This document shows positions 2,012 through 50,156 of a DNA stretch of 64,000 nucleotides, piece by piece. Origin of the DNA: Dethiobacter sp. (GTDB lineage: Bacteria > Bacillota > Dethiobacteria > DTU022 > UBA8154); the NCBI GenBank assembly GCA_020725665.1, contig DYEO01000028.1, positions 718 to 64,717 of the forward strand, written 5' to 3'. The notes beneath the pieces were generated by a model that saw only the letters and a program-made list of their open reading frames with translations, did no database searches and was not told the DNA's origin. The translations under genes were made by a program, and so were the position numbers. Each line of letters opens with the position of its first letter. Position 1 is the stretch's first letter.

Positions 2012-2037
2012 GGGCGGGCACGGAGACCCGCCCCTAC
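2012..2037. repeat. REP-like GC palindrome (GGGCGGG-loop-CCCGCCCCTAC)
   Basis: Perfect 7-bp GC stem plus a conserved CTAC tail. Member of a family recurring about 11 times in the window. Confidence 0.6.
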
Positions 2038-2119
2038 ATGCTGTGTATTTCTCATTCCGGCGGGGAATAAACGGGAAAGTATTTTTTCCAGCGTAAGAAT
2101 GAAAATGAGGGCATATCCC

Positions 2120-2145
2120 GGGCGGCTGTGGGCAGCCGCCCCTAC
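2120..2145. repeat. REP-like GC palindrome (GGGCGGCTG-tggg-CAGCCGCCCCTAC)
   Basis: 9-bp perfect stem. Near-identical to the copy at 8297-8322. Confidence 0.6.
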
Positions 2146-2213
2146 GGGTGCAGGGATTTGTATGAGGGCCGGCGGCAACACCGGCTTTTTTAATTTGTGA
2201 CTGTAACAAATGG

Positions 2214-2240
2214 TTAATACCGGCAGGGAATTGCCGATAT
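2214..2240 (+). promoter_or_regulatory. candidate sigma-28 (SigD/FliA) promoter upstream of flaG
   Basis: GCCGATAT at 2233-2240 matches the Bacillus sigma-D -10 consensus. TTAA sits 15 nt upstream where the TAAA -35 is expected. Confidence 0.45.
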
Positions 2241-2336
2241 GTTATTAAAAGACTGCTATTTTTTTAAAACAGAAAGCAAAAAGGAAAGAAACCCTGGACG
2301 GAGCCGGCATTTCTGAGAAAGGAGGGTGAAAAGGAG

Positions 2337-2717
2337 ATGAAAGTTGACGGTGTTGATCCCGTGCAGTTGAACAAAGTCCACGACTTTACTCAGAAAACGG
2401 TTGTCCAGGAGAGCCAAAGACAGGACCCCAAGCAAAAACAGCAGGAACGGGTACTGGGACGGGAACAGCCGGTCGGGGAATGGGATGGCAGCAGGATCGA
2501 GGAACTGGATGAGGCTCTCCGCAAGATGAACCAGACAGCGGAAACCTTTAATGTGAGCCTGCGCTTTCGTGTCCACGAGGAAACGGAGCGCATCATGGTG
2601 CAGGTCATCAACCGGGACAGCAAGGAAGTTATCCGGGAAATACCGCCGGAACGCGTCCTCAACATGGTTGCCCAGATCCAGAACATGATCGGCCTCTTTG
2701 TTGATTTCCGCCGCTGA
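2337..2717 (+). CDS. flaG: flagellar protein FlaG
   Basis: 126 aa with a C-terminal FlaG signature (LRFRVHEETERIMVQVINRDSKEVIREIPPERVLNM). Sits immediately upstream of fliD. Confidence 0.8.
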   Translation: MKVDGVDPVQLNKVHDFTQKTVVQESQRQDPKQKQQERVLGREQPVGEWDGSRIEELDEALRKMNQTAETFNVSLRFRVHEETERIMVQVINRDSKEVIREIPPERVLNMVAQIQNMIGLFVDFRR

Positions 2718-2761
2718 TCCTGTGATTTTTCACAATTCATTTAGCGGGGAGTGCAATATCA

Positions 2762-4264
2762 ATGTCCAGAATTACTTTCGGCGGGCTCGCTTCGGGGTTG
2801 GATACGAACAATCTCATCAACCAGTTGGTGGAGTTGGAACGCCAGCCTATCGTACGTAAAGAAAAGCGCATCACCGAACTGGAGCGCATCAGGGATACGT
2901 GGCGGGATATCAATATGCGCCTGCGCAACCTGCGGGATACGGTGCTGGGGTTAAAGGAGCGGGACAACTTACTTTCCATGCGGGCAGGCTCCACGGAACC
3001 CTCCCGCGTTGCGGCGACGGCAGGATACAATGCGAACCCGGCTACCTACGAGCTGCAGGTCAACCAGTTAGCCACCCACCACACTGTGGCCATGTTGACG
3101 GATATCCAGACCCGTCTTGGCAGAAACGCGAATGAAGCTATGAATTTAAACGGGACCTTCCGCCTTAAGGACCTGGCGGCGGGTGACGGCACATACAAGG
3201 AGATAACGGTGCAGAGTACCGACTCCCTGACGGCCCTGCAGCATAAAATCAACAATGCCGGCGCCGGGGTTACGGCCTCCATTATTGCCGGTCACCTGGT
3301 AATGAAGAGCAATATGACCGGGGCGGCAAACGGCATGGCGATGGCCTATGTTTCGGGGCAGGATGTACTCCAAACCCTGGGTATTTACAATACGGGCACA
3401 TCATCCTACTACAACCAGACGGTGGCGCCCCAAGATGCCCATTTCAGTATCAACGGCATCAGCGCCGTCCGTGCCGGCAATGTGGTGGATGACCTGGTGG
3501 CCGATGTGACCTTCAGGTTTATGGACGCGACGAGCGGCCCCGTTTACGTGCAGGTGGCGGCTGATACGGAACGGGCGATTACAGCTCTCGGCAGCTTTGT
3601 GGAACAGTACAATTCCGTTAACCAATTTATCCGGGAGAAACTGGAAAAACGCGATCCGGACAGCAAAGATACAAGCCGGGGTCTGCTCCAGGGTGATACT
3701 ACCCTGATGAAGATCGAGCGCTCTTTGCGCACCCTAATCAATTCGCCTGTGTCCGATTATCGCTACCAGGATGAAGAAGGGAACTGGCAGCAAAAAAAAT
3801 ATTATTCCCTTGCCACCCTGGGAGTAATGACCATGGACAAGGACGGATACCTGCAGTTCAACGAGAACAAGCTGGCAGCAGCGCTGCAGGATGACCCGGA
3901 GGGTGTTTTCTCCGTACTGCAATTCGAACTGCTGGATGAGCACGGAGTGGGGACAGGCCGTTTCAGCGGTGTGGCCGTGGAGCTGGACAATTATCTGAAA
4001 AGGCTGCTGTTAACGGAACAGGACAGCCAGGGACGGCCTCTGAGACCTATTTCCGTGCAGCAGGAGGCGGCAGTACAGCGGCGTATCGATGAGCTGCGGC
4101 GGCGTATTCAGGTGCGGGAAGAGCGGCTGCTGCGTTACGAGGAGCGGCTAGTGCGGCAATTTACATCCCTGGAGAGATATATCTCCACCATGCAGTCCCA
4201 GAGCCAGGAGATGGAAAACATGATCAGGCAATTTACGGGCTTTGGCAGCAACAATAGCAGATAG
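2762..4264 (+). CDS. fliD: flagellar filament cap protein FliD (HAP2)
   Basis: 500 aa with FliD N-terminus (ITFGGLASGLDTNNLINQLVELERQPI) and C-terminal coiled coil. Confidence 0.92.
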   Translation: MSRITFGGLASGLDTNNLINQLVELERQPIVRKEKRITELERIRDTWRDINMRLRNLRDTVLGLKERDNLLSMRAGSTEPSRVAATAGYNANPATYELQVNQLATHHTVAMLTDIQTRLGRNANEAMNLNGTFRLKDLAAGDGTYKEITVQSTDSLTALQHKINNAGAGVTASIIAGHLVMKSNMTGAANGMAMAYVSGQDVLQTLGIYNTGTSSYYNQTVAPQDAHFSINGISAVRAGNVVDDLVADVTFRFMDATSGPVYVQVAADTERAITALGSFVEQYNSVNQFIREKLEKRDPDSKDTSRGLLQGDTTLMKIERSLRTLINSPVSDYRYQDEEGNWQQKKYYSLATLGVMTMDKDGYLQFNENKLAAALQDDPEGVFSVLQFELLDEHGVGTGRFSGVAVELDNYLKRLLLTEQDSQGRPLRPISVQQEAAVQRRIDELRRRIQVREERLLRYEERLVRQFTSLERYISTMQSQSQEMENMIRQFTGFGSNNSR

Positions 4265-4351
4265 CCTTTGGTACTACAATATAAAACACGGTGTTTCTAA
4301 ACTGTATAACCGCTTATCGGAGAACGGCAGTTCGGAAGGAGTGTTTTCCAA

Positions 4352-4906
4352 TTGGGGGTTAACCCTTATGCCCAGTATCACAAAAACCAGGTGGAAACGG
4401 CCGACCAGGGAAATCTCCTGCTTATGCTTTACGAGGGAGCGCTGCGCTTTCTGGGCCGGGCACGCCGCGCCCTGCGGGAGCATAACGCAGAGGCGGCCAA
4501 TAATAACCTGGTGCGCACACAGGAGATTATCGCCGAACTGATGGCTTCCCTTAACTTGGAGGCCGGAGATGTGGCGGTCTCCCTTTTCCGCCTCTACGAG
4601 TATATGCATTACCTGCTTGTGCAGGCCAATATCAGGAAGGATGAGGAAATGCTGGACCAGGTTGAGGGCATGCTGCTGGAACTGAAAGAGGCATGGAGCA
4701 GCGCCCTGGGGATGGGCGTTACTGTTCCCCCGGCCGGGCAGGATGGGGAAGACCCTGCAGTGTCGAGCCGCCAAAACCCGGAAGGGGAATGGATGGAGAG
4801 CCGGCAGACTGAAGAAAAGGTCGGCGCCCTTGCCGGTTACCAGCCGGGATTGCGTGAAGAGGAAGCTTTAAAACAGGGATACAGGCGGGTGAATATGAGT
4901 GGTTGA
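4352..4906 (+). CDS. fliS: flagellin-specific chaperone FliS (with C-terminal extension)
   Basis: TTG start. FliS core: YAQYHKNQVETADQGNLLLMLYEGALRFL...EIIAELMASLN. It carries ~60 extra C-terminal residues. Confidence 0.88.
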   Translation: MGVNPYAQYHKNQVETADQGNLLLMLYEGALRFLGRARRALREHNAEAANNNLVRTQEIIAELMASLNLEAGDVAVSLFRLYEYMHYLLVQANIRKDEEMLDQVEGMLLELKEAWSSALGMGVTVPPAGQDGEDPAVSSRQNPEGEWMESRQTEEKVGALAGYQPGLREEEALKQGYRRVNMSG

Positions 4907-5267
4907 GGAACTCCTGCATGAGCTCGAATTGCTCCTGACACGGGAGAGAGAAATATTGCATAAATTCTCGCTGCCGGATCCCGGAGAGGAAGGGGACAGC
5001 ACCTTGCAGCAGCTCTCGCAAAGCCTGGAGCAGTGCGGGGTGCTGCTGGCGCGGCTTGGCGAAACAGGACCAGGCTCCCTGGATCAAACGGCCCTACGTC
5101 ACCTGCAGGAGTTAAAGTGCCGGCGTGAAGATAATCGCAATCTCCTGTCTGAGATATTGCACTCCTCAGGCAAAAAAATTGCAGATCTCCAGGTGGAGAA
5201 AAGAGCCCTTTGCTCATACTACCCTGCAGCTTCGGCAGGGGCCCGCTTTTTGGACTGGGAGGGTTAA
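4899..5267 (+). CDS. hypothetical FliT-like flagellar chaperone (by position)
   Basis: 122-aa helical ORF with GTG start overlapping the fliS stop. It sits in the position fliT holds in B. subtilis; no sequence signature confirmed. Confidence 0.4.
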   Translation: MVEELLHELELLLTREREILHKFSLPDPGEEGDSTLQQLSQSLEQCGVLLARLGETGPGSLDQTALRHLQELKCRREDNRNLLSEILHSSGKKIADLQVEKRALCSYYPAASAGARFLDWEG

Positions 5268-5278
5268 AACTATGGTGG

Positions 5279-5302
5279 TCTGACTACTGAATTCTGACTA
5301 CG
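5279..5302. repeat. short tandem heptamer repeat TGACTAC (x2, interrupted)
   Basis: tcTGACTACtgaattcTGACTACg in the intergenic gap after the fliS-fliT unit. The same heptamer recurs at 16825-16842 and 55911-55920. Confidence 0.6.
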
Positions 5303-5499
5303 TAAATAAGTTTCAGGGATGAATAAAACCCAGGCCGGATGCTTGAAAAAACCCGGCTTATTTTTTTAATTTATTCTAAAATGGGCAGGAATTGGTAGAT
5401 TTTTGCCGAAAGATTTTAGATTAATATTGGTGGCCATGCTTGGAATACGAAAAAAGATGAAATTTAGGATGAGTAAGTATAAATAAAGGAGGATGAGGC

Positions 5500-5892
5500 A
5501 TGCTCTGGAACGATCAGTTGATGCAGGGCCTGACCCGGGGCCTCGACGCGGCGGCTCTGCGCCAGAAAGTAACGGCCAACAACATTGCCAACTTGAATAC
5601 TCCGGGATTTAAGCGGTCGTACGTCCTTTTCAATGCGGAACTGGATAAGGCCCGGAGCAAACTGCCCCTCGCGCGCACAAATCCCTGCCACTACCCCGGA
5701 CGTCCCGGGGAGGCGGATCCCCGTGTACAGACGGAACGCCATACGTCGCGGCGCACTGACGGGAACAATGTGGATCTGGACCAGGAGATGCTAGACCTGG
5801 TAACCAACCAGTTGCACTATAACGCCCTGATCCAGAGGACCAGTGGACGCCTGGCCGCATGGCGTTATGTGATTACGGAAGGGAGAGGTTAA
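5500..5892 (+). CDS. flgB: flagellar basal-body rod protein FlgB
   Basis: Rod N-terminal motif NNIANLNTPGFKR. A strong SD AAAGGAGGA precedes the ATG. Confidence 0.92.
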   Translation: MLWNDQLMQGLTRGLDAAALRQKVTANNIANLNTPGFKRSYVLFNAELDKARSKLPLARTNPCHYPGRPGEADPRVQTERHTSRRTDGNNVDLDQEMLDLVTNQLHYNALIQRTSGRLAAWRYVITEGRG

Positions 5893-5898
5893 AAAAAG

Positions 5899-6324
5899 AT
5901 GGAGCTTTTTCGCTCTTTTCAAATCAGCGGCTCGGCCCTGACGGCGGAGAAAGTACGCATTGATACGGTGGCCGGCAACCTGGCCAACCTGCAGACGACG
6001 CGTACGGCGGCAGGGGGGCCGTATCGCCGTAAAACGGTAGTCTTTGCTGAAAAGCTGAACAAGGTGCGCAGTGTCCCGCCGGCTTTTCGGGGGTACGGGG
6101 TGCGCGTGGCCTCCGTGGTGGAGGACCCAAACCCCCCGCGCCTGGAGTTTGACCCGGAACACCCCGATGCAAATGAAGAGGGCTTTGTGGCTTATCCGAA
6201 TATCGATATGGCCAAGGAAATGACCGACCTGATTACGGCTTCCCGCTCTTACGAGGCTAATACCACGGCGGTCAATACGGCAAAGAGCATTTACCTGAAA
6301 GCTCTGGAAATCGGCCGCGGCTAA
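5899..6324 (+). CDS. flgC: flagellar basal-body rod protein FlgC
   Basis: SGSALTAEKVRIDTVAGNLANLQTTRT... and conserved C-terminal SRSYEANTTAVNTAKSI. Confidence 0.93.
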   Translation: MELFRSFQISGSALTAEKVRIDTVAGNLANLQTTRTAAGGPYRRKTVVFAEKLNKVRSVPPAFRGYGVRVASVVEDPNPPRLEFDPEHPDANEEGFVAYPNIDMAKEMTDLITASRSYEANTTAVNTAKSIYLKALEIGRG

Positions 6325-6371
6325 ACAGTCATATCCGCTGCCCGGTGACCATTAACCTATTTTACGCATAA

Positions 6372-6686
6372 ATGGGGGAAACGATGATGCAAGTAAATCC
6401 TTATGTTGTGCCCCTGCCTGCGCCGGCGCGGCATGAAAAAGAAGATAACATCACATCCAGCGGGGCTTCCTCTTTTGGCGGCCTTTTAAAGGATGCCCTT
6501 TACAAGGCCAACCAGGAACAACTGCGTGCCGCGGAGGTGACGCAGGAGTTGATATCGGGAAAGATTGAGGATCTGCACCAGTTGATGATTGTAACGGAAC
6601 AGGCAAAGCTCTCCCTGCAGTTGACTGTGCAGGTGACCAGTAAGCTGATCGAGGCCTACCGTGAAATTTCACGCATGCAGGTGTAG
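6372..6686 (+). CDS. fliE: flagellar hook-basal body protein FliE
   Basis: 104 aa with FliE C-terminus (QLMIVTEQAKLSLQLTVQVTSKLIEAYREI). Confidence 0.9.
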   Translation: MGETMMQVNPYVVPLPAPARHEKEDNITSSGASSFGGLLKDALYKANQEQLRAAEVTQELISGKIEDLHQLMIVTEQAKLSLQLTVQVTSKLIEAYREISRMQV

Positions 6687-6706
6687 TCTGATACGAGGTG
6701 CTGCCA

Positions 6707-8278: not shown

Positions 8279-8338
8279 TAACTTTTTATTTTAAGCGGGC
8301 GGCTGAGGGCAGCCGCCCCTACGGAGGAGGCGCTCCCC

Positions 8339-9349: not shown

Positions 9350-10094
9350 AATTTTGCGCGGTATTGATATCAGAGGTTGGAAAACATATGAGCCCCGGGT
9401 GCCTGAGGAGGGAAAACCCGGGGACGATCTTAAAGAGAACGCATTGATGGAGCCCCAGCTTCCACCACCGCCCACGCGGGAGGAAATTGAAAAGGAGCGG
9501 ACAGAGATCCTGGCGGCGGCCCGGCAGGAGGGAGAGCGCATACGCCGGCAGATCCTGGCAAAAGCAGGCGAGGAAGCGACCGTTCTCCGGGAGAGGGCCA
9601 TTGCGGAAGGTTACGGGGAAGGCTATGCCCGGGGTGAGCAGGAGGCGGAGAAACTGCGGGAAGAAGCGGCGCATACCCTAAAAAGGGCAAAAGAGGAGCA
9701 CCGCAATATGCTTGACGGTGCGGAGGAGGAGATCCTGCGCATCGCCGTCAGCATGGCGGAAAAGCTTGTGCACGTGCAGGTGGAACTGAACGAGGATGTG
9801 ATCCTGGCCATGCTGGTGCGCTGTCTGGAAAGTTTACCCGGGGGGCGCGAGCTGGTGCTGCGTGTCAATCCCCGGGATGAGCAACTCTGCCGCAGCAAGG
9901 GACAAATGCTGCAGGGTTTATTGCGCCGGGATGCCTCCCTGCAGATTGTTGCCGATGCTGATCTGCCAAGTGGAAGCTGCATCGTGGAATCGGAAGAAGC
10001 AGAAGTCGCTTTTCTATTACAAAAAGAACTGGAAATCCTTACTAAAAAACTCCTCGCTTTGGCAGTTGACAGGGGACAAAGGACAATTGGATAA
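9333..10094 (+). CDS. fliH: flagellar assembly protein FliH
   Basis: Glu/Arg-rich coiled-coil N-terminus followed by a FliH C-domain. Overlaps the fliG stop and precedes fliI. Confidence 0.8.
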   Translation: MPLSPKILRGIDIRGWKTYEPRVPEEGKPGDDLKENALMEPQLPPPPTREEIEKERTEILAAARQEGERIRRQILAKAGEEATVLRERAIAEGYGEGYARGEQEAEKLREEAAHTLKRAKEEHRNMLDGAEEEILRIAVSMAEKLVHVQVELNEDVILAMLVRCLESLPGGRELVLRVNPRDEQLCRSKGQMLQGLLRRDASLQIVADADLPSGSCIVESEEAEVAFLLQKELEILTKKLLALAVDRGQRTIG

Positions 10095-10189
10095 ATGGAT
10101 GGTTTGATGTTTCTCCGGCGTGCCGGCACACCGACTTCTGAGCTCTGGCTCGTAGGGGCGGACGACCCTGTCCGCCCGCCTGGTTTGCA

Positions 10190-11560: not shown

Positions 11561-11640
11561 TTCTAATACTCTTTAAAAAATACATTTTTATGGCGAAAAG
11601 AATAATAGAAAAAGGAGGATTCATCCTCCGGTGATTGATT

Positions 11641-12132
11641 ATGGCTTTTGAGTTCAGGCTCCAGAAATTGCTGGATTACCGGGAAAATCAGAAAAAGCTG
11701 GCACAGGAAGAGCTGGCCCGCCGGCAGCGGGAATTGCTGGCAGTCCAACAGGAGCTGGACCGGCTGCGGGACGAAGAAAAACGTCTTCTGGAAAACCACC
11801 GCCGCTGTCAGGAAAAGGATCTGAATATCCCGGCCCTAATCTTTCTGGAAAATTATCGCCTTTTCCTGCAGGAGAGTTGCCGCAAATGTGTGGAAGAGCT
11901 GGACCGGGGAGAGGAACACGTGGAACAGCAACGGCATGTTGTTCTGGAAACGTGGCGTTCCTGCCGTATCTTGTCAACATTACGGGAAAAGGCACATTCA
12001 GAATACCGGGAAGAGGAAAAAATAAGCGAGCAGCGCCTTAATGATGAATTGGGGCTTAAATGTTTCATGAGGCGGGAGCAGGAGTTAGGGAAAGTGGAAA
12101 ACCATATTTTGAAGGAAGGTGATAGGGACTAA
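11641..12132 (+). CDS. fliJ: flagellar export protein FliJ
   Basis: Coiled-coil ~160 aa with FEFRLQKLLDYRENQKKLAQEELA, the FliJ pattern. Lies between fliI and fliK. Confidence 0.85.
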   Translation: MAFEFRLQKLLDYRENQKKLAQEELARRQRELLAVQQELDRLRDEEKRLLENHRRCQEKDLNIPALIFLENYRLFLQESCRKCVEELDRGEEHVEQQRHVVLETWRSCRILSTLREKAHSEYREEEKISEQRLNDELGLKCFMRREQELGKVENHILKEGDRD

Positions 12133-22125: not shown

Positions 22126-23310
22126 ATGGCAAAACGAAAATATGGGAACAAGAAACGGAGGCAATGCTCCCTTCCGCCAGCGAACCCCGACCCGCAAGGG
22201 GTGCGCTTGCTTAACCTGCAGCTTTTTGCGGAAGGGGAAGATAAGACGGAGCAGGCCACGCCGCACCGTCTCCGTGAAGCGCGCAAACGGGGCCAGGTGA
22301 TGAAGAGCATGGAGCTGAACGCTGCGATTAACATGGCGGGCATGGCTTTCTTTTTTCTGCTTTTCTGGCCCTTTTTCCAAAACGGCATTTTTGCCATGCT
22401 GCAGCATTTTCTGCGCACCCTTCCGGTGGAAGCAGCCGCGGGGGATCTTCCCATTATGCTGGTGATGCGCCTTTCCCTGCAGCATTACATGAAACTGGTA
22501 CTGCCCTTCCTGTTGGCAGCCTTTTTTACCGGCTTCATCGCCAATGTTATGCAGGTCGGCTTTCTCATCTCTACGGAGGCAATCAAACCCCAGCTCAACC
22601 GCCTCAATCCCGTGGAAGGCTTCAAGCGCATTCTTTCCCGTCGTTCCCTGTTTGAGCTGGTTAAGTCCGTGCTCAAGGTGGTCATTTTCGCCTTGGTTTG
22701 CTACTTCTATCTGCGCAGCCAGCTTCAGCCCATGCTCCTTTTACTCGGTCAGGAGCCGGGGGTAACGGCCAGGCTGCTGGGGAAAATCCTGGTGGGCCTG
22801 GCTTTCCGCGTGGCTGCTGTCTTTTTCATGTTGGCGCTTATCGATTTCATTTACCAGCGTCACGAGTACCTGAAAAACCTGCGCATGTCCCGCCGTGAGA
22901 TCAAGGATGAGTATAAGCAGTTGGAGGGCGATCCCCATGTGCGCTCACGCCTGCGTGAGCGGCAGCGGGCAATCGCTCGGGAGCGCAGCCTGGCCCGGGT
23001 GCCTGAGGCCACTGTTGTGGTTACCAACCCCACGGAATTGGCCGTGGCGCTGCGCTATAACGAAAAGGAGGACGGGGCCCCCCTGGTGCTGGCCAAGGGG
23101 GCCGGGGTCCTGGCCCGGCGTATCCGCGAGATAGCCCGGGATTACCGCATCCCTGTTATCACGAACCCGCCCGTGGCCCGCTTACTCTACCGCGAGGTGG
23201 AGATTGGCGGGGAGATTCCCGTCGAACTTTACCAGGCAGTTGCGGAGATCCTCGCCATGGTTTACCGCCTGCAGGAAAAGGAGCGGCTGCGCCGCCGCCG
23301 TGCCCTGTAG
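22126..23310 (+). CDS. flhB: flagellar export apparatus protein FlhB
   Basis: N-terminus EDKTEQATPHRLREARKRGQV. Autocleavage motif NPTE present. 4 TM helices. Confidence 0.95.
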   Translation: MAKRKYGNKKRRQCSLPPANPDPQGVRLLNLQLFAEGEDKTEQATPHRLREARKRGQVMKSMELNAAINMAGMAFFFLLFWPFFQNGIFAMLQHFLRTLPVEAAAGDLPIMLVMRLSLQHYMKLVLPFLLAAFFTGFIANVMQVGFLISTEAIKPQLNRLNPVEGFKRILSRRSLFELVKSVLKVVIFALVCYFYLRSQLQPMLLLLGQEPGVTARLLGKILVGLAFRVAAVFFMLALIDFIYQRHEYLKNLRMSRREIKDEYKQLEGDPHVRSRLRERQRAIARERSLARVPEATVVVTNPTELAVALRYNEKEDGAPLVLAKGAGVLARRIREIARDYRIPVITNPPVARLLYREVEIGGEIPVELYQAVAEILAMVYRLQEKERLRRRRAL

Positions 23311-23336
23311 GGAACGACGCCCCCGTCGTTCCCTAC
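23307..23336. repeat. GC palindrome GTAGGGAACGACG-ccc-CGTCGTTCCCTAC overlapping the flhB stop
   Basis: 13-bp perfect stem. It shares the GTAGGG/CCCTAC ends of the REP-like family. Confidence 0.6.
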
Positions 23337-29540: not shown

Positions 29541-29565
29541 GGGCGGATATGGAATCCGCCCCTAC
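29541..29565. repeat. REP-like GC palindrome (GGGCGGAT-atgga-ATCCGCCCCTAC)
   Basis: 8-bp perfect stem plus CTAC tail. Confidence 0.6.
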
Positions 29566-40135: not shown

Positions 40136-40136
40136 C

Positions 40137-40923
40137 TTGAAAAACGAATGGGACTATAGTGAATTTAAAGTGGCTTTTTTTCGACGCACCGGGCTGGATT
40201 TGAACCTTTATAAAGACAAGCAGATGGAAAGGCGTATCCGCCAGCTGATGCAGCGGGAAAAAAAACCCGGTTTTAAGGAGTTCTATGATTACCTTGCTTC
40301 GTCAACGACAGCCATGACTTTTTTTTTTCAATTACCTTACGATCAACACTTCAGAATTTTTTCGTGATGAGAAGATTTACAGCCTGCTGGAGGCGGAGAT
40401 TTTTCCGGAAATTATCCATAAAATTACAGGGAAGCTGATTGCCTGGAGTGCCGGTTGCTCCATTGGCGCAGAGCCGTATACGGTGGCGATTATCCTGGAT
40501 CGATTAAAAGTCCTTTCCCGGTCGGAGATCCACGCTACCGACATGGATGATAAAGCCCTGCTGGCGGCGCAGCAAGGCTGCTACAACCAGAAACAGTTGG
40601 GCAAGACACCATCCCATGTGGTGGAAAAATATTTCACCCGGGAAAAGGATATCTACTGTGTGAAGCCCGAAATCCGCAAAGCAGTCCATTACCGGCGGCA
40701 TAACCTGCTTACGGATGACCCTATCGCCAAATGCCACATCATTTTCTGCCGTAATGTTTTTATTTACTTTAAACCGGAAACGCAGCATTTTCTCCTGGAG
40801 CGTTTTTCCCGGGTCCTCAACCCCGGGGGATTCATGGTTATTGGCTCGGCCGAGTACATCGGCAACCCGTCACAATACTCCTTCAGCAAACGCTACAACA
40901 CCATTTTCCAAAAAAACAGTTGA
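40137..40923 (+). pseudogene. cheR: chemotaxis methyltransferase CheR, interrupted by +1 frameshift in a T10 homopolymer
   Basis: N-part in frame 0 (…ASSTTAMTFFF then stop at 40367). The rest continues in frame +1 from 40330: NYLTINTSEFFRDEKIY...LIAWSAGCSIGAEPYTVAIIL...VFIYFKPE. Nine Ts instead of ten would restore TAMTFFFNYLTINTSEFFRD. Confidence 0.85.
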
Positions 40924-41665
40924 CAATTGACGTATGCCCAGCCAAAGGCTGCTTTGCCGACGACCTAATCGTACTCATCAACTGGCATCCGTCAAACAAT
41001 TGGCTCGTGAAAGCAGTAACCCGCAGAATCAAGGAAGAACTGGAGAAGCTTCAGGTAGAATTGAACCAGGAAAAGAGCAAAGTGGCAGACCTCACCAAAG
41101 GGGAAAGCTTCATCTTCCTGGGCTTTGAGTTCCGTAGAATAAGGAGCAGAAGTGGAAAATGGAGACCCTACTACACACCAAAACAGGAGAAGCGCAAGAA
41201 GCTAATCACGGAACTTCAGGAGATATTCAGCAAGTATACTTCGCAGCCCGTGGGGAAAATAATTGAGGAAATAAATCCGAAACTACGGGGATATTGCAAC
41301 TACTATCGCATCGGACAATCGGCGCGTTGTTTCAGCTACATCAGGCAATGGGTGATGAAGAAAGTATGCAGGCACCTGCAAAGAGCAAGAGGACGCTCGG
41401 GGTTTGGCTGGAAAAGGTGGAGCTCGGCGTATATCTATGAAGTGCTCGGACTGTATAAAGACTACAAGCTGAAAAGATATATCCCGGCAGCCGGACCGGC
41501 AGAGAGGACACATAAACCTTGTTATGAAGCCAATAGGTAAGCCCGGTGCGGGAAAACCGCACGCCGGGCTTGAAGAGGCGGAAATAGAGTAAGGCAGGAT
41601 ATTGAGGCACTGTCAACCGAAAGGGACAGCAAACAGACTAGGTCTGCCTAAGCCACTACGCCAGT
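40920..41665 (+). mobile_element. 5'-truncated group II intron remnant: RT from motif 5 onward, maturase (X) domain, and domain V
   Basis: ORF 40920-41540 carries FADDLIVLI (the RT YADD box) and a maturase region (PKLRGYCNYYRIGQSARCFSYIRQWVMKKVCRHL). 41539-41571 folds as canonical domain V: AGC triad, 7-bp plus 5-bp helices, 2-nt CG bulge on the 3' strand, purine-rich loop. No domains I-III or RT motifs 0-4 are present upstream, because cheR occupies that position. Confidence 0.75.
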
Positions 41666-41703
41666 TTTCGACCCTACAGGTTAACAGTGGACAGTTTACA
41701 ATT

Positions 41704-41787
41704 GTAGGGGCGGGTCTCTGCGCCCGCCCGTGTAGGGGCGGGTCTCTGCGCCCGCCCGTGTAGGGGCGGCTGCTCACAGCCGCCCGC
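41704..41787. repeat. three tandem REP-like GC palindromes (two identical 27-nt units plus a variant)
   Basis: tGTAGGGGCGGGtctctgcgCCCGCCCg occurs twice, followed by tGTAGGGGCGGCTGctcaCAGCCGCCCgcc. Confidence 0.7.
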
Positions 41788-41808
41788 CAACATCCAACCT
41801 CTAACATC
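41788..41808. repeat. short tandem heptamer repeat CAACATC/CAACCTC/TAACATC
   Basis: Three heptamers directly after the REP triplet and before the tautomerase RBS. Confidence 0.55.
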
Positions 41809-41831
41809 AGCCTTTTGGAGGAGGTGATAAG

Positions 41832-42017
41832 ATGCCCACCATATTTTTTTACGGCCCGGAACTGGATCTGGAGAAGAGACGGGAACTGGTACAATCATTC
41901 ACAAAGAAAGCGAGCGAACTTACCGGCATACCGGAGCAGGCCTTTGTCGTTTATCTGCGCCCCAGCGACCAGGAACATGTGGGGGTAGGCGGCATGCTTC
42001 TTTCGGACCGGAAGTAG
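41832..42017 (+). CDS. 4-oxalocrotonate tautomerase family enzyme (Pro-1 tautomerase)
   Basis: 61 aa starting MPTIFFYG (catalytic N-terminal Pro after Met removal), the size and pattern of the 4-OT family. GGAGGAGG SD. Confidence 0.75.
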   Translation: MPTIFFYGPELDLEKRRELVQSFTKKASELTGIPEQAFVVYLRPSDQEHVGVGGMLLSDRK

Positions 42018-42041
42018 CGACCTGCTATCCAAAAGTCTAAA

Positions 42042-42100
42042 GGAAAAACCAGGGTGGCACCTGCCGTAGTGTCAAGTTGTTTCCCACCCTGGTTTTTTTA
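42042..42100. terminator. bidirectional rho-independent terminator
   Basis: AAAAACCAGGGTGG...CCACCCTGGTTTTTTT: 11-bp GC stem with A-run and T-run flanks, between convergent tautomerase and iorB genes. Confidence 0.75.
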
Positions 42101-42141
42101 CTGGCTCCGCCGGTACCTGTTCTTAGCATTCTAAAAAATAT

Positions 42142-42741
42142 CTAGAAGTTTGCCTCCTGCAGGCAGGCCTCCCGCCCCAGGTCAAAGGCCGTGAGGTTGA
42201 CGTCAACCAATTTGGGCGGTACCAGGCCGGCCATGACCTCCCGCAGCAGCTCCGGCTCCAGGGGCGAGCCGCCCTTGGCGGAGAAAGCACCCAGCAGGAC
42301 GGCGTTGGTGGCACGGAAACTGCCGGCCTTGACTGCCAGCGCCTGCATGTCAAAAAGAACGGTGTTAGCCTTGAGGTCTTTAAGGTAACCCTTGATCTCC
42401 GCCTCGTTGTACTTATAGGCCCCGGAAAGCATCTCGTGAGGCGGGACGACGGTGGTATTGATGATAGCCACGCCCCCGGGCTTCAACTTCTTCACCCAGC
42501 GCACCACTTCGAGCATCTCAAAGCCGAGGAGCACTTCGGCTCCACTGTCGGGGACCAGGGGGCTCTTGATCCCGTCGCCGAAACGCAGGTGGCTGACCAC
42601 GGAACCGCCCCGTTGGGCCATGCCCAGAGATTCCGTACTTCTTACCGAGTATCCCTTTTGAATGGCGGCGAGGGAGATTGTCCTGGTTGCGAGGATTGTT
42701 CCCTGTCCCCCCACACCGGATAAAACGATGCTGAACTTCAT
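42142..42741 (-). CDS. iorB: indolepyruvate:ferredoxin oxidoreductase beta subunit IorB
   Basis: ~199 aa, MKFSIVLSGVGGQGTILA, the pyruvate/2-oxoacid:ferredoxin oxidoreductase gamma-like fold. Directly downstream of iorA on the same strand. Confidence 0.85.
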   Translation of the reverse strand: MKFSIVLSGVGGQGTILATRTISLAAIQKGYSVRSTESLGMAQRGGSVVSHLRFGDGIKSPLVPDSGAEVLLGFEMLEVVRWVKKLKPGGVAIINTTVVPPHEMLSGAYKYNEAEIKGYLKDLKANTVLFDMQALAVKAGSFRATNAVLLGAFSAKGGSPLEPELLREVMAGLVPPKLVDVNLTAFDLGREACLQEANF

Positions 42742-44555: not shown

Positions 44556-44804
44556 ATCCAGTTCACCTCCACAAAAATATCAACTTTATTCTCTAGTAGT
44601 GCTCCGGCTTGCGAGTTCCTTTGTTACGACAAATTGCTAAATTTTACCATTAACATGGTACATATTACGCCTCTTTGATCAGTCCTTTCTTAAAAAATGG
44701 ATATAAGTATTTCAGGGGGTTTTTTTAAAGGGCAATGTTAATGTATCTGATTAGCAATCTTTTGTCAAGTATAATGATAATTTTTGTTAGTTTTAGACAA
44801 TACT

Positions 44805-46025
44805 TTATGGAGAAGCTGGAGTAGAGGTTTCAAGCGGTGGGTTTTTGGGCCGGACGAAATAGATAAGGGCGGCCACGATGATGGGAATCACGGTGAGGTT
44901 GAACATGGCACTGTAACCATAGGCATCGGCAACCAGGCCCCAGATAATGGAACCGGCGGCCACCCCGATATCAAAGGCGGTCCAGTAGGTTGCGTTGGCG
45001 CCTCCCCGTTTGGCCGCAGGCACTTTGCTGATGCAGAGGGCTAACATGGTGGGTTGAATAAAGCCGAAACCGATACCGTAAAAGATACCGCTGGCAACCA
45101 GGTACGTTGCCGTGGTTGTTTGCGCCAGGATAGGCATGGCAATAAGCGCGGCCAGGGAGCCGATGATCATAGTGAGATCATAGCCGCTGCGACCCCTGCG
45201 ATCCACGATTAACCCGGAGAGGGGGCGGGTGATCAGGGTGGTCAGGGCCAGCGTGAGAAAAAATATGCCGGCTGAAGTCATTCCCTGCTCACGTACAAAA
45301 AGAGCTAAAAAGGACATAAATGAGCTGTACGTAAAAGTAGTGAAAAGGATGACCATGGCCGGGCGCAAGGCAGATTTTTCCATAATAACGAACCTGAGGT
45401 GCTGTGCCTGCTTTTCCACGGGCGGGTATTTTATCGGCAGCGCCAGCAACAGGGCAGCGAGCGTGAGCACAGAACAGGCGATGAAAAGCACGGGAAAAGA
45501 GAAAGAATCGACGATCCAGAGACCGATACCGGGAGCGATAGCCAGCGAGATGCTGCTGGTAAGGGAAAAAAAGCCCATCCCCTCACCTATCCTGCTCGCT
45601 GGCACAACGTCCGAGGCAATTGTAGGAGAGGCCGTGTTTAAGATTCCCCAGCCGATTCCCTGTACAAAACGAAAGAAAACCAGTGCCGCAACCGGAATCA
45701 TCCAGGTATAGACAACTGTAACTAAAAGGAAGATAAAAAGGCCGCTCAGGTAGATAAGCCTGCGCCCGTAACTGTCCAGGGCCCAACCTGTAACGGGCCG
45801 TATCAAAACGGCGGCCAGCGTCAGGGAACCGAGGGCCAGGCCGGCAATACCCTTACTTCCGCCATACTGCTGGATATAAATGGGCAGGGTGGGGATGAGG
45901 CTGTGAAAGGCAATAAATGTGGTCATAGTTGACAAGCAAATAAGTATAAAACTTGCCGTCCACAGGGGAGCTTTTGCCCCGGGGGAACTTTCTGCTTTGG
46001 TATGGGTCGGGATTTCTGTTTTCAT
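44805..46025 (-). CDS. MFS transporter
   Basis: 12-TM major facilitator pattern with a GxxxDRxGRR-like motif (GWALDSYGRRL). Start taken at MKTEIP. Confidence 0.8.
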   Translation of the reverse strand: MKTEIPTHTKAESSPGAKAPLWTASFILICLSTMTTFIAFHSLIPTLPIYIQQYGGSKGIAGLALGSLTLAAVLIRPVTGWALDSYGRRLIYLSGLFIFLLVTVVYTWMIPVAALVFFRFVQGIGWGILNTASPTIASDVVPASRIGEGMGFFSLTSSISLAIAPGIGLWIVDSFSFPVLFIACSVLTLAALLLALPIKYPPVEKQAQHLRFVIMEKSALRPAMVILFTTFTYSSFMSFLALFVREQGMTSAGIFFLTLALTTLITRPLSGLIVDRRGRSGYDLTMIIGSLAALIAMPILAQTTTATYLVASGIFYGIGFGFIQPTMLALCISKVPAAKRGGANATYWTAFDIGVAAGSIIWGLVADAYGYSAMFNLTVIPIIVAALIYFVRPKNPPLETSTPASP

Positions 46026-46117
46026 AAATTCTCCCTGCTGCAAACATTGGTGCTTATGCCAGACAGTCAAACCGATTATGGACCATTTACAAGAAAGTGT
46101 CAACCCCCTGAAAATGC

Positions 46118-46145
46118 GGAAGTTGGAAGTTAGAAGTTGGAAGGT
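46118..46145. repeat. short tandem heptamer repeat GGAAGTT x4 (degenerate)
   Basis: GGAAGTTGGAAGTTAGAAGTTGGAAGGT. Abuts a REP element. Confidence 0.6.
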
Positions 46146-46146
46146 A

Positions 46147-46176
46147 TGTAGGGGCGGACGACCCTGTCCGCCCGCG
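46147..46176. repeat. REP-like GC palindrome identical to the copy at 10152-10180
   Basis: tGTAGGGGCGGACgaccctGTCCGCCCgcg. Confidence 0.65.
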
Positions 46177-46284
46177 AAGTGGTGGTAACAAGTAAGTTTG
46201 TCTATTTTGACTATTGCCCACTATTAGAACTTATGCTATATTTAACGAAAAACGCGCACTGCGTTGCGCAGGGAGGTAAGGTGG

Positions 46285-47874
46285 ATGGATTTGAAGAAGG
46301 TTCTGGTGAGCGACCCGCTGGCCGAAGATGGCATTACCATCCTTAAAGAAGTGGCCCAGGTCGACGTAAAAACAGGCCTTAGCCACGAGGAACTCCTGTC
46401 CATTATCGGAGATTATGATGCCTTGCTTGTGCGTAGCGGTACCCAGGTGGAAGCGGATATTATCGCTGCCGGAAAAAAACTGAAAGTGATCGGCAGAGCC
46501 GGGGTTGGCGTTGACAATATCGACGTGGAGAAGGCGACGGAATTGGGCGTCCTCGTCATCAATGCGCCGGGAGGTAATACAATCTCTGCTGCCGAACATA
46601 CCATGGCCATGATGATGGCCCTGTCGCGCAATGTGGCCAATGCCTGCGGTTCACTGCGCTGCGGCGAGTGGAAAAGAAGTAAGTTTATCGGGGTGGAACT
46701 GTACCGCAAGAAACTGGGTGTTATCGGCTTTGGACGTATCGGGCAGGAGGTGGCCGTGCGGGCCAGGGCTTTCGGTATGGATATTTTAGCGTACGATCCG
46801 TACATATCCTCCGAGTATATTGAAAAACAGGGGTATACCCCGGTAACCCTGGACCAGCTTTTTGCCGGCGCCGATTTCATCACTATCCACGCACCCAAAA
46901 CATCTGCCACAAAGTATCTTATCGACGCCGACGCGCTGGCCAGGATGAAGGACGGCGTACGCATTATCAATGTAGCCCGTGGCGGTCTCATCGATGAAAA
47001 AGCGCTCTACGATGCCATTGTGAGCGGCAAGGTTGCGGGCGCGGCCCTTGATGTCTTTGAAAACGAACCACCCTCCGACAGTCCCCTGCTACAACTGGAA
47101 CAGGTAGTCTGCACACCTCACCTCGGCGCTTCCACGGAAGAGGCCCAGGTCAAGGTGGCGGTACAGGTGGCCGAGCAGTTTGTGCGCCTCTTCAAGGGTG
47201 AACCGGTGCAGATGGCCGTTAATGCCCCGATCCTGCCTCCGGAGGCCATGGCCGAGGTGGAACCTTTTATTCCCCTCATGACCACGATGGGGAGCTTCTT
47301 TATGCAGTTTTTTGGCGGCCGCATCAAGTCGGTGGAAATTAACTACAGCGGTGAGGTATCCGCCCATCCCGTGGCTCCCCTGACCACCGCCCTGCTGATC
47401 GGTTTACTGCAGGTCATTCTGAGGAGTAATGTAAATTATGTCAACGCACCGCCCATTGCCAAGCAGCGCGGCATCAAGATTGAAGAAACTACGAGCAGGA
47501 ATGCGCCCATTTACCGCAACCTGATTACGGTGAAGATCACCACGGAGGAAGGGACCCATAGCATTGCCGGAACCCTTTTCGAAGGCAGCGAAATGCGCAT
47601 TGTCCAGATCGACAATTATGGTATCGAAATTGTCCCCTCCCGCTACATGGTAGTAAACAGGTATCATGATCGTACCGGGGTGGTGGGCAAGGTGGGGACC
47701 CTGCTCGGCAATAACAGTATAAATATTGCCAGCATGCAGTTGGGACGCAACCTGGAAAGAGGTGAGGCGCTCATGGTCCTGCAGGTGGACAGTCCCATCT
47801 CCCCCGAGATCATTGCAGAGCTGCAGGGTGATGATTTGATGATCAAGTCTTGCTTTATTGAACTTCCCCTTTAA
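46285..47874 (+). CDS. serA: D-3-phosphoglycerate dehydrogenase SerA (with ACT domain)
   Basis: Rossmann GxGxxG (VIGFGRIGQEVA), D-2-hydroxyacid dehydrogenase catalytic residues, and a C-terminal ACT-like region. Confidence 0.9.
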   Translation: MDLKKVLVSDPLAEDGITILKEVAQVDVKTGLSHEELLSIIGDYDALLVRSGTQVEADIIAAGKKLKVIGRAGVGVDNIDVEKATELGVLVINAPGGNTISAAEHTMAMMMALSRNVANACGSLRCGEWKRSKFIGVELYRKKLGVIGFGRIGQEVAVRARAFGMDILAYDPYISSEYIEKQGYTPVTLDQLFAGADFITIHAPKTSATKYLIDADALARMKDGVRIINVARGGLIDEKALYDAIVSGKVAGAALDVFENEPPSDSPLLQLEQVVCTPHLGASTEEAQVKVAVQVAEQFVRLFKGEPVQMAVNAPILPPEAMAEVEPFIPLMTTMGSFFMQFFGGRIKSVEINYSGEVSAHPVAPLTTALLIGLLQVILRSNVNYVNAPPIAKQRGIKIEETTSRNAPIYRNLITVKITTEEGTHSIAGTLFEGSEMRIVQIDNYGIEIVPSRYMVVNRYHDRTGVVGKVGTLLGNNSINIASMQLGRNLERGEALMVLQVDSPISPEIIAELQGDDLMIKSCFIELPL

Positions 47875-47925
47875 GGGATTTTTACGGGGAGGAAGGAGCA
47901 GAATAAAGATAAAAGGGTGATTTCC

Positions 47926-48150
47926 ATGCCGCTTTACGAATTCCGTTGCACCTGCGGGCACGTATTTGAAAAGCTCTGCCGCAGCAGCGATGACGACAGC
48001 CCTGCCTGCCCTAAATGCGGGGGTGTCTCCGAGAAAGTTTTCTCCAGCTTCAGCGTGGGACGCTCCGCCCCGGCAACAGGCTGCAGGGTGCAAGGGGGCC
48101 AAGCGGGCGGCCCTTGCAGCAGTTGCAGTTACGCCAGGCACGTCCATTAA
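47926..48150 (+). CDS. FmdB-family zinc-ribbon protein
   Basis: MPLYEFRCTCGHVFE...CPKCGG, the FmdB regulatory zinc-ribbon signature. Confidence 0.7.
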   Translation: MPLYEFRCTCGHVFEKLCRSSDDDSPACPKCGGVSEKVFSSFSVGRSAPATGCRVQGGQAGGPCSSCSYARHVH

Positions 48151-48159
48151 ATTGCGCTG

Positions 48160-48204
48160 AAAACCTCTATAAAGGCCCGGGCCTCTATAGAGGTTTTCTA
48201 TTTG
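48160..48204 (+). terminator. rho-independent terminator
   Basis: AAAACCTCTATAAAGGCCC/GGGCCTCTATAGAGGTTTT near-perfect 19-bp hairpin followed by a T-rich tail. Confidence 0.7.
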
Positions 48205-48266
48205 TATTGCGAAAACGGGTGCCCGGTTATATAATACTCACAGGGCTTACGGAAAGGACTTAATAA

Positions 48267-49430
48267 ATGGAAAAGCCGGCTATCTATTTTGACAATGCGG
48301 CCACCTCCTGGCCGAAGCCTGAGGCGGTTTATCATGCTGCGGAGCATTACCTGCGTTGCGGCGGGGCCAACCCCGGCCGCTCCGCCCATGCCCGTTCCCT
48401 TGCCTCAGAGCGACTCCTCTACGAATGCCGGGAAAGAGCCGCCGCATTCCTTGGAGCGGAAAAAGCGGAGCAGATCATCTTTACCCTCAATGCCACCGAT
48501 GCGCTGAATATGGCGATCAAGGGCATGCTGGAAGCAGGCGATCACGTCGTTTACAGCTCCTTTGAACACAATTCAGTGCTGCGGCCCCTCTACTCCCTGC
48601 GGGAGAGCGGTTTGATTAGCACCACGATGATCTCTCCTACAGGGAAGGATGCTGTTGATGCCGCATCATTTGACCGCGCCATCCGCCCGGAAACGAAACT
48701 GCTCATCTGCACCCATGCTTCCAACATCACCGGCCGTATTATGCCCGTGCAGGCCATCGGCAAAGTTGCCGCGGCTAGGGGTGTCTTTTTCCTGCTCGAT
48801 ACCGCCCAGACGGCGGGGGCGCTCCCTTTAAACGTACAGGAGATCGGCGCGCACCTGGCCGTTTTTACCGGACACAAAAGCCTGCTCGGTCCCCCCGGTG
48901 TAGGGCTGCTCTACCTGCGCGAGGGAGTAAAGATTAAACCCTGGCGTGAAGGGGGAACGGGCAGCCGTTCCGATGAGGAGCAGCATCCCAAATTTTTGCC
49001 CGATTACCTGGAAGCGGGGACAATGAACACCCCCGGTATTGCCGGCCTGAACGAGGGATTGAAATTTATCACCGCAACCGGTGTGGAAACAATCCGCGCA
49101 CACGAACTAAAACTTTGTCGTATTATGCTGCAGGGACTGGCCCAAATCGACGGTGTGAAAGTTTTCCGGTCCGCTGCTCCGGAGCACTATGTGGCAGTCA
49201 TATCATTCGTGCTCGAAGGATTGGACAGTGGGGAATTGGGATACATCCTGGAAGAAGGCTACGGCATCCTCTGCCGCACCGGCCTGCACTGTGCCCCCCA
49301 GGCCCACCGGGCCATCAGTACCTTTCCCGCCGGGACGGTGCGCTTCAGTTTTGGTTACTTCAACACGGAAGAAGAAGTGAATACTGCCCTCAAAGCCCTC
49401 AGCGAAGTGTCACGGCGACTGTTCCGCTGA
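48267..49430 (+). CDS. class V aminotransferase / cysteine desulfurase-family PLP enzyme
   Basis: IYFDNAATSWPKP N-terminus, PLP-lysine context (TGHKSLLGPPGVG) and a class V fold. Confidence 0.8.
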   Translation: MEKPAIYFDNAATSWPKPEAVYHAAEHYLRCGGANPGRSAHARSLASERLLYECRERAAAFLGAEKAEQIIFTLNATDALNMAIKGMLEAGDHVVYSSFEHNSVLRPLYSLRESGLISTTMISPTGKDAVDAASFDRAIRPETKLLICTHASNITGRIMPVQAIGKVAAARGVFFLLDTAQTAGALPLNVQEIGAHLAVFTGHKSLLGPPGVGLLYLREGVKIKPWREGGTGSRSDEEQHPKFLPDYLEAGTMNTPGIAGLNEGLKFITATGVETIRAHELKLCRIMLQGLAQIDGVKVFRSAAPEHYVAVISFVLEGLDSGELGYILEEGYGILCRTGLHCAPQAHRAISTFPAGTVRFSFGYFNTEEEVNTALKALSEVSRRLFR

Positions 49431-49582
49431 CAGCATTCCGGGATATGTTTAAAAAAAAGCGACCGAATTGTAAGCCTATCAAACTGTCCATTGTCCACTT
49501 TGTTATGGTGTTGTAAAGCATCTGCGTGTGAATTATGTCTCCTCCGGATAGATAATATTCGCTCAATAGCAGCCCATACCTT

Positions 49583-49593
49583 CCCCCCCCCCC
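49583..49593. repeat. C11 homopolymeric tract in promoter region
   Basis: 11 consecutive C immediately upstream of TTGCCA and an AT-rich region, ~110 nt before the ORF at 49701. Confidence 0.7.
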
Positions 49594-49700
49594 TTGCCAA
49601 AAAATCTTTTCTTTTAATGGCTTTTCTGGTAATGTTATAATAATAAGGACAATGAAAAAAAGGCTTTCAGAAATTATATTATTATGGAGGAGGGAAGAAA

Positions 49701-50099
49701 ATGGCTGCACAGGATTCACTGGACCGGATCATTGATGTATTGCCTGAAAATTTGAAGTGCCTCGTCATGAAAGAAGTGCATGACAAAGAGAATTTTCTGG
49801 CGGTGGTGAAAGGGATTAAGGGTGAAGCTTTGGCCGTTACAGACGAAGGGGTGCATATGGTCAAGGAATCAGACCGGTGCAGTTTCTTCCCCTTCAGCGC
49901 CATTGCCTCCATAAAAATCTACCGTGAACTGCGTCGCGGTAAGTTTGAACTGATCCTGCGGGGAGGAAAAAGACCCGAACAGGGATTAATGATGGGGTAC
50001 GAGGCTGATCCCGCTGAGCATGTGGTCAACTTTCCCTTTGCCAAGATGGCCATGTTCAAGAAAGTTGGCGAAATGATCTGGGAGCGAATAACGGCTTAA
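49701..50099 (+). CDS. hypothetical protein (132 aa)
   Basis: GGAGGAGGG SD then ATG. No recognisable motif. Confidence 0.5.
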   Translation: MAAQDSLDRIIDVLPENLKCLVMKEVHDKENFLAVVKGIKGEALAVTDEGVHMVKESDRCSFFPFSAIASIKIYRELRRGKFELILRGGKRPEQGLMMGYEADPAEHVVNFPFAKMAMFKKVGEMIWERITA

Positions 50100-50129
50100 T
50101 TTTTTAAGATAGCTGGTAACCGTTTTTTT

Positions 50130-50156
50130 GTAGGGGCGAGGCATGCCTCGCCCGCT
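50130..50156. repeat. REP-like GC palindrome (GGGCGAGGCATGCCTCGCCC, 20-nt perfect palindrome with GTAGG head)
   Basis: Lies upstream of thrC. Confidence 0.6.

Follow-up and report, generated by a model that had tools for sequence, protein, structure and literature searches.

The DNA analyzed here is a stretch of 64,000 nucleotides (nt) from Dethiobacter sp. (NCBI GenBank assembly GCA_020725665.1, contig DYEO01000028.1, positions 718 to 64,717 of the forward strand), referred to below as the window and numbered from its first letter. Pfam scans and the recorded gene calls show the window to be about 90% coding, with a flagellar operon among its genes. Several of its non-coding gaps hold copies of one short G+C-rich hairpin headed by the tetranucleotide GTAG. 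These copies are discussed here as repetitive extragenic palindromes (REPs), together with their possible dependence on a REP-associated tyrosine transposase (RAYT).

A family of short hairpins with a GTAG head

Eight copies in the window match the tagged 26-mer GTAGGGGCGG-N10-CCGCCC exactly. One further unit of 25 nt and two variants, at positions 50130 and 23307, bring the family to a total of 10 to 11. A scan of the window for the core GGGCGG-N9-10-CCGCCC returned 9 matches where 0.21 are expected, a number reached in none of 100 shuffles, and the tagged pattern with up to 3 mismatches returned 14 matches against 1.25 expected. An earlier note on this DNA had described a REP-like family of about 11 copies and had made its case depend on enrichment of the motif beyond chance. 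Both points hold within the window, with the copies lying where the note had placed them and far outnumbering chance expectation. An origin by chance or base composition in a genome of 53% G+C, for which only the G+C richness of the units speaks, has next to no probability in view of these counts, of eight exact matches to a pattern that specifies 16 bases, and of the confinement of all copies to the non-coding share of the window, which is roughly 10%. The 10 to 11 copies in 64 kb are accompanied by none in a further 9.5 kb upstream. Classically, REPs number more than 100 per genome.

The unit is a non-autonomous piece of DNA of 27 to 28 nt, consisting of a pyrimidine, an unpaired GTAG, a G+C hairpin with a GGGCGG/CCGCCC base and a variable upper stem and loop, and a closing G. 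The one-sided units, counted without the flanking letters, measure 24 to 26 nt and have perfect stems of 7 to 9 bp, and GTAG stands directly 5' of the stem, with no spacing, in 10 of 10. Of all 4-mers that immediately precede a perfect G+C hairpin on its 5' side in the window, GTAG is also the most frequent, with 10 cases. A C or T precedes every copy and a G follows all ten one-sided copies. The upper stems vary (AC/GT, CTG/CAG, G/C, AT/AT and AGG/CCT) yet always pair, which amounts to compensatory changes; the constant GTAG head and GGGCGG/CCGCCC base are the probable recognition elements. Predicted RNA folding energies range from -14 to -19 kcal/mol, with -22 kcal/mol for the element at 23307. 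REPs are defined by an unpaired GT[AG]G at one end, 0 to 2 nt from the stem, and by a stem-loop-forming G+C palindrome of about 20 to 40 nt. The units of the window have both features, and their anatomy matches the REP rule set used in PMC6006769.

Two structural details in the earlier note need correction. It had placed GTAGG/CCTAC flanks in either orientation around the hairpins, but GTAG is one-sided in every copy except that at 23307. Similarly, its stem range of 7 to 13 bp is too wide for most copies and applies at its upper end only to the longer element at 23307, whose stem measures 10 to 11 bp in a perfect-stem search and 13 bp if the GTAG/CTAC ends pair. The near-identical pairs it had listed (10152/46147 and 2120/8297) are confirmed: the copies at 10152 and 46148 are identical, and those at 2120 and 8297 differ by 1 mismatch. 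Overall, the copies stand alone except for a direct pair with a 108-nt spacing and a direct triplet. A CRISPR array, in which unique spacers of similar length separate direct repeats, was considered for the triplet and rejected, as its units are 2 nt apart and the other copies are dispersed. In an Rfam 15 scan, no RNA family matched at its gathering score anywhere in the window.

Placement of the copies between genes

Among the one-sided units, those at 10152, 41704, 41732, 41760, 46148 and 50130 read on the plus strand and those at 2012, 2120, 8297 and 29541 on the minus strand. The first unit, GTAGGGGCGGGTCTCCGTGCCCGCCC (2012 to 2037), lies 8 nt past the stop codon of a DUF8042 gene and is the sole copy with a run of five Ts, located on the strand antisense to that gene. 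The second, GTAGGGGCGGCTGCCCACAGCCGCCC (2120 to 2145), lies upstream of a T-tract hairpin (2164 to 2195) and of flaG. The 60-nt gap between fliF and fliG holds GTAGGGGCGGCTGCCCTCAGCCGCCC (8297 to 8322), whose CTAC end abuts the fliG Shine-Dalgarno sequence GGAGGAGG. The unit GTAGGGGCGGACGACCCTGTCCGCCC occurs in the fliH-fliI gap (10152 to 10177) and again at 46148 to 46173, between divergent genes for a major facilitator superfamily (MFS) transporter (minus strand) and a serA-like protein (plus strand). The two-sided variant GTAGGGAACGACG-CCCC-CGTCGTTCCCTAC (23307 to 23336), which has no assigned strand, is found at the flhB stop, between flhB and flhA. The TAG of its GTAG head (23307 to 23310) is the flhB stop codon, so that the repeat itself supplies the end of the gene. 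The 25-nt unit GTAGGGGCGGATTCCATATCCGCCC (29541 to 29565) separates a DUF2802/DUF6115 gene from a flagellar rod gene (flgF/G).

Farther downstream, the triplet runs head to tail with a 28-nt period. Its first unit (41704 to 41729) begins 24 to 27 nt past the 3' end of a group II intron remnant, its second (41732 to 41757) is identical to the first, and its third (GTAGGGGCGGCTGCTCACAGCCGCCC, 41760 to 41785) lies 46 nt upstream of a tautomerase gene (41832 to 42017). The variant GTAGGGGCGAGGCATGCCTCGCCC (50130 to 50153), with the stem base GGGCGAGG, is located upstream of thrC and is followed by a weak T-run.

The intergenic placement reported in the earlier note is accurate, since all copies fall outside called genes except for the 4-nt overlap with the flhB stop codon. 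Its location of the copies at operon boundaries is not: most of them lie between cistrons inside the flagellar operon (fliF/fliG, fliH/fliI, flhB/flhA and before flgF/G). In addition, both orientations relative to transcription occur, one copy lies between divergent genes (MFS/serA-like), and the three triplet units lie 5' of the tautomerase gene.

The T-tracts bear on whether the hairpins are intrinsic terminators or attenuators. A T-tract is absent from 9 of the 11 copies, and the claim that the family does not consist of classical terminators stands; the accompanying statement that no copy has a U-tract does not, because a loose hairpin-plus-T definition takes in two copies, at 2012 and 50130. 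Together with the position of G+C hairpins downstream of several genes, these two would favor termination, but the T-run at 2012 is antisense and that at 50130 is weak. Moreover, two other hairpins of the window, at 2164 to 2195 and at about 42040 to 42100, are followed by long T-tracts and have stems unrelated to the repeats. A shared GTAG head and stem base would not be expected of independent terminators, and the operon would be interrupted if transcription stopped in the fliF-fliG or the fliH-fliI gap. Termination is thus a very improbable account of the family.

Some neighboring features were also recorded. The group II intron remnant spans 40483 to 41680 and contains a truncated maturase/reverse transcriptase open reading frame (ORF; 40920 to 41540, with GIIM and the end of RVT_1) directly after a CheR fragment. 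Its domains V-VI correspond to an RF00029 match at 41537 to 41677 that scores 34.6 bits, below the gathering score. Two spurious minus-strand ORFs of 93 and 74 amino acids (41613 to 41894 and 41674 to 41898) traverse the triplet and yield peptides such as GRAQRPAPT. Just upstream of the flagellar genes, at 206 to 875, lies a pair encoding a MazE antitoxin and a PIN-domain toxin, which is absent from the syntenic locus of the relative L202.

The same hairpins in other genomes and in RAYT genes

When plasmid records were searched by BLAST with the triplet, an 860-kb replicon of Vescimonas fastidiosa MM35, a human gut member of the Oscillospiraceae, emerged. The 440 kb of it that were read contain 207 perfect GTAG hairpins, compared with 1 to 13 hairpins per 200 kb for unrelated control tetranucleotides under the same criteria. 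The exact 26-mer of the window copies at 10152 and 46148 is present 17 times in these 440 kb. The flanks are as in the window, with a pyrimidine before 197 of the 207 hairpins and a G after 183 of the 207. The Vescimonas repeats include inverted clusters with regular spacing, fixed distances of 2, 10, 22 to 23 and 27 to 28 nt being seen within clusters, and the repeats are absent from an integrative and conjugative element (about 1 to 20 kb) and from a prophage (about 215 to 250 kb). This is REP behavior at high density in a cultured Firmicute. No small ORF flanked by REPs in the manner of a REPtron was found in Vescimonas. The replicon (NZ_AP023416.1, pMM35_01) is filed as a plasmid; it looks like part of a chromosome because it carries dnaA, dnaN, gyrA/B, rpmH-rnpA and many tRNA ligase genes.

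The connection to a transposase comes from Monoglobus pectinilyticus, in which a weak tblastn match of Escherichia coli RayT corresponds to a Y1_Tnp gene. The exact 25-mer of window positions 29541 to 29565 occurs both 90 nt upstream of this gene and inside it. The Monoglobus protein has more than 1,000 homologues, some of them named 'REP element-mobilizing transposase RayT' or 'REP-associated tyrosine transposase [Oscillospiraceae bacterium]'. The same 25-mer lies inside or beside the RAYT genes of the loci L207, L216 to L220, L223, L225 and L228. In three homologues placed on contigs of Oscillospiraceae-type lineages, each ORF holds two inverted in-frame copies of GTAGGGGCGGATTC[CT]ATATCCGCCC, which encode VGADSISAR and RADMESAPT. 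Pairs of hairpins within the ORF were located at 10115 to 10139 and 10290 to 10314 in L216, at 10088 to 10112 and 10254 to 10278 in L218, and at 5407 to 5431 and 5540 to 5564 in L220; in L207, an in-ORF hairpin occupies 3098 to 3122. L216 and L217 have two further copies just downstream of the RAYT gene. Across loci with a GC content of 0.47 to 0.62, the DNA of the hairpin does not vary, third codon positions included, whereas the whole genes average about 73% column identity. This favors a constraint that acts on the DNA and not only on the peptide.

Several features mark the encoded proteins as RAYTs. The hairpin-linked proteins match PF01797, and tblastn to E. coli rayT gave an E value of 2e-5. 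Against NF047646, with its cut-off of 80 bits, P0189 passes with 82.7 bits, and P0144 (75.7) and P0132 (68.9) score below. In the alignment of the RAYT-type proteins, H59, H61, Y115, N119, P120, W94, Q95 and R104 are invariant, covering the HUH motif, the Y...NP motif and the GTAG-contact positions of RayT; the last three residues are discussed for RayT in PMC6006769.

A larger sample of 80 metagenomic RAYT loci (GC content, 0.28 to 0.64) was fetched with P0189. A perfect GTAG hairpin lies inside the ORF in 56 of the 80 and either inside or within 300 nt in 69 of the 80. The density of GTAG hairpins is 1.9 per kb inside the gene or within 300 nt of it and 0.19 per kb farther off. In addition, different RAYT clades go with different hairpin subtypes, two of which are abundant in Vescimonas. 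As for chromosomal position, the RAYT gene lies between hisS and aspS in two Oscillospiraceae-type lineages (L216, 8675 to 12447; L218, 8649 to 12304). In the corresponding region of Vescimonas (L213, 24620 to 28017), the hisS-aspS gap of 270 nt contains REPs but no RAYT and could be the site of a lost RAYT gene.

The tagged pattern also occurs in at least 120 IMG/VR contigs, with a GC content of 0.31 to 0.72 and subtypes that recur among them. One hairpin with identical flanks (gaagacctGTAGGGGCGGACGGCTCTGTCCGCCCgggagaaaga) is shared by about ten IMG/VR contigs. No convincing copy was found in a collection of isolated phage genomes. Queried by phmmer with the RayT of E. coli, the TnpA of IS608 and the RAYT of Monoglobus, the ORFs of the window, the 120 viral loci, the loci of 45 relatives and the 440 kb of Vescimonas gave no Y1 transposase; none of the 120 IMG/VR loci encodes a RAYT.

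These associations bear on the idea that the repeats are the footprint, ends or target of some other mobile element, such as a MITE (a miniature transposable element with inverted repeats), an insertion sequence of the IS200/IS605 type or a homing group II intron, or that they arose by slippage or recombination without a dedicated enzyme. The start of the triplet 24 to 27 nt past the intron remnant is compatible with such an origin, its head-to-tail 28-nt period could stem from slippage, and no transposase was seen in the genome fragment. Nevertheless, only one of the nine sites is near the intron, and the units lack terminal inverted repeats and target duplications and are far shorter than MITEs. 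Neither tnpA nor tnpB of IS200/IS605 was found in the window, and the tight subtype-specific association elsewhere points to RAYT. We consider an origin from another element improbable.

Host relatives and the spread of the repeats

The FliG protein of the window is closest to those of metagenome-assembled genomes (MAGs) of Dethiobacteria and 'Syntrophomonadaceae', and its best species-representative match is 88% identical. In the syntenic flagellar loci of 45 relatives, no such units were found, the one exception being a related hairpin in a Dethiobacter MAG. The closest relatives obtained are L202 (FliG 93% identical), L221 (in the same 90% FliG cluster) and L121 (88%). These three and L122 have shorter gaps without a unit at the same positions, including that between fliF and fliG, which measures 15 nt in L221 versus 60 nt in the window. 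This pattern speaks for a lineage-specific gain of the repeats. The two-sided subtype found at 23307 is present in L202 at 8255 (GTAGGGAGCGACG-ccct-CGTCGCTCC). Where the window has the REP at 2120, L202 carries an untagged GGGGCGG-N10-CCGCCCC hairpin (3737 to 3760).

The comparison is relevant to a second explanation, in which the hairpins are RNA elements selected by the host. They would block 3'-5' exonucleases or mark processing sites and thereby set the ratios of flagellar proteins, and their likeness would stem from a common binding factor. In favor of this, six sites separate cistrons of the flagellar cluster, the stability of the hairpins is very high, and the fliH-fliI position is taken in L202 by an unrelated GC hairpin of 13 bp. 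REPs of E. coli are known to stabilize upstream mRNA. However, the copies occur in both orientations, that at 46148 lies between divergent genes, the triplet is 5' of its gene, and the closest relatives have no hairpin in the fliF-fliG gap. In addition, identical 25- to 26-mers turn up in other bacterial classes and in viral contigs, where the context is unrelated, so that a local regulatory origin is insufficient. As the source of the family, host selection at the RNA level is therefore unlikely, but such a function would be compatible with REPs as a secondary effect.

We conclude that the elements of the window are GTAG-tagged REPs that were most likely spread by a RAYT acting on the hairpin in single-stranded DNA, a reading to which we assign a probability of roughly three in four. 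The suggestion in the earlier note that the copies are targets of a REP-associated transposase is thereby the best-backed one, given the identical hairpins in and beside RAYT genes elsewhere. In the mechanism proposed here, the hairpin would form on single-stranded DNA and would be recognized, through its GTAG head and stem base, by an HUH/Y1 RAYT of the TnpA-REP type whose gene lies in another part of the genome or was present in the past. By cutting and rejoining beside the hairpin, this enzyme would let copies of both orientations build up in non-coding gaps, some of them head to tail. We infer that a RAYT acts, or once acted, in the host genome, and a single enzyme would presumably serve several hairpin subtypes. 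Resident copies would be carried by transcription into operon mRNAs, where they would form very stable hairpins, with a possible secondary influence on the decay or translation of the message. Such effects at the RNA level would be a consequence of the copies' placement and not its cause.

Several observations weigh against this reading. The search for a RAYT or IS200-like transposase near the copies, proposed in the earlier note, gave none: no RAYT/Y1 gene is present in the window ORFs or in the 9.5 kb upstream (73.5 kb in total). A RAYT homologue is likewise missing from the whole 860-kb Vescimonas replicon, which has hundreds of such hairpins, in tblastn searches with E. coli RayT and P0189. 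Only 1 of 10 window copies, that at 29541, belongs to the subtype found in the retrieved RAYT genes, and with a synthetic RAYT query carrying ACGACCCTGT-subtype peptides, the 120 best hits were all RAYTs of the ATTCCATAT type, none of which carried this subtype or any further one of the window. The window has no inverted dimers resembling REPINs (REP doublets forming hairpins) or BIMEs (bacterial interspersed mosaic elements), which are common in the family although not obligatory, and there is no orientation bias relative to the likely direction of replication. The relatives are only 74 to 78% identical in DNA, so that no clean empty site or insertion junction can be defined. Finally, the hairpin in the fliH-fliI gap of L202 (11808 to 11842) differs from the repeat of the window, so that the host may have selected for a hairpin at this site. 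The L202 hairpins at 11808 and 3737 may be degenerate REPs, or else these positions may be under selection to have a hairpin.

The closest known system is that of the E. coli REPs and BIMEs with RayT (TnpA-REP, YafM; PDB 4ER8). Its elements, too, are short G+C hairpins outside genes that have an unpaired GTAG at the 5' end and occur in many copies and both orientations, and RayT shares the HUH, Y...NP and W94/Q95/R104 positions with the enzymes linked to the hairpin elsewhere. In contrast to the E. coli REP, the stem described here is perfect, shorter and unrelated in sequence (GGGCGG base), and inverted dimers of the BIME type are missing from the window. Identity between the related RAYTs and E. 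coli RayT is only about 27%, and the hairpins of the former lie inside the ORF rather than only flanking it. More generally, the units fit the GTAG-tagged REP superfamily as defined by Di Nocera et al. (2013; PMC3733652), with GTAG at one end of a stem-loop, several families per genome, complementary stem changes and intergenic location. The REPIN-RAYT systems of Pseudomonas described by Bertels and Rainey are similar in that non-autonomous hairpin repeats are tied to a single-copy, vertically kept RAYT. They differ in that the window units are singletons or direct repeats and not inverted doublets, inverted pairs being found only inside the RAYT gene elsewhere. In IS200/IS605 elements, too, an HUH/Y1 enzyme recognizes hairpins in single-stranded DNA, in this case subterminal ones whose stem has a short guide sequence on its 5' side. 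Unlike these, the units are not the ends of a longer element and have no tnpA or tnpB between copies, and their copy number and dispersal are REP-like.

The earlier note had remarked that REPs are poorly catalogued in Clostridia-like Firmicutes. This agrees with the survey in PMC3733652, which covers Proteobacteria, Cyanobacteria, Chloroflexi and the Planctomycetes-Verrucomicrobia-Chlamydiae (PVC) group and reports no GTAG REPs for Firmicutes; its text and supplements, apart from the family-consensus figure, contain no GTAGGGG-type sequence. The 2010 RAYT paper does not mention Firmicutes, and Bertels et al. (2017; PMC5581495) describe RAYT group 1 in Clostridia with a weak 16-mer association. 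Neither the repeat sequences nor the encoded peptides were found in the literature text searched, figures aside. The in-frame cognate hairpins within RAYT genes and the identity of units across bacterial classes might be new.

A broader and distinctly more tentative proposal is that of a cross-phylum REP/RAYT superfamily with a previously undescribed architecture, in which each RAYT ORF carries, in frame, the REP of its own clade, usually as an inverted pair; the two nonapeptides encoded by GTAGGGGCGGATTCCATATCCGCCC, VGADSISAR and RADMESAPT, would be an example. It includes a recent horizontal entry into the Dethiobacteria-like lineage, and such a transfer, if true, would explain both the 25- to 26-mers identical to those of gut Oscillospiraceae and the absence of units from the nearest relatives. 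In such an arrangement, the RAYT gene would double as the enzyme and as the master copy of the enzyme's substrate.

On the practical side, one hairpin provides the flhB stop codon and another sits against the fliG ribosome-binding site. Hairpin arrays will yield false 'hypothetical proteins', of which the minus-strand ORF at 41613 to 41894 is an example, and the hairpins probably break assemblies. REP/RAYT systems have been studied almost only in Proteobacteria, and the repeats described here constitute a bona fide GTAG-tagged REP family in Bacillota. GTAG REPs are present in a Dethiobacteria-like MAG and, very densely, in gut Oscillospiraceae, with identical units across classes and in viral contigs. 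The subtype-specific embedding of these repeats in RAYT coding sequences offers a handle on the co-evolution of a domesticated transposase and its repeats.

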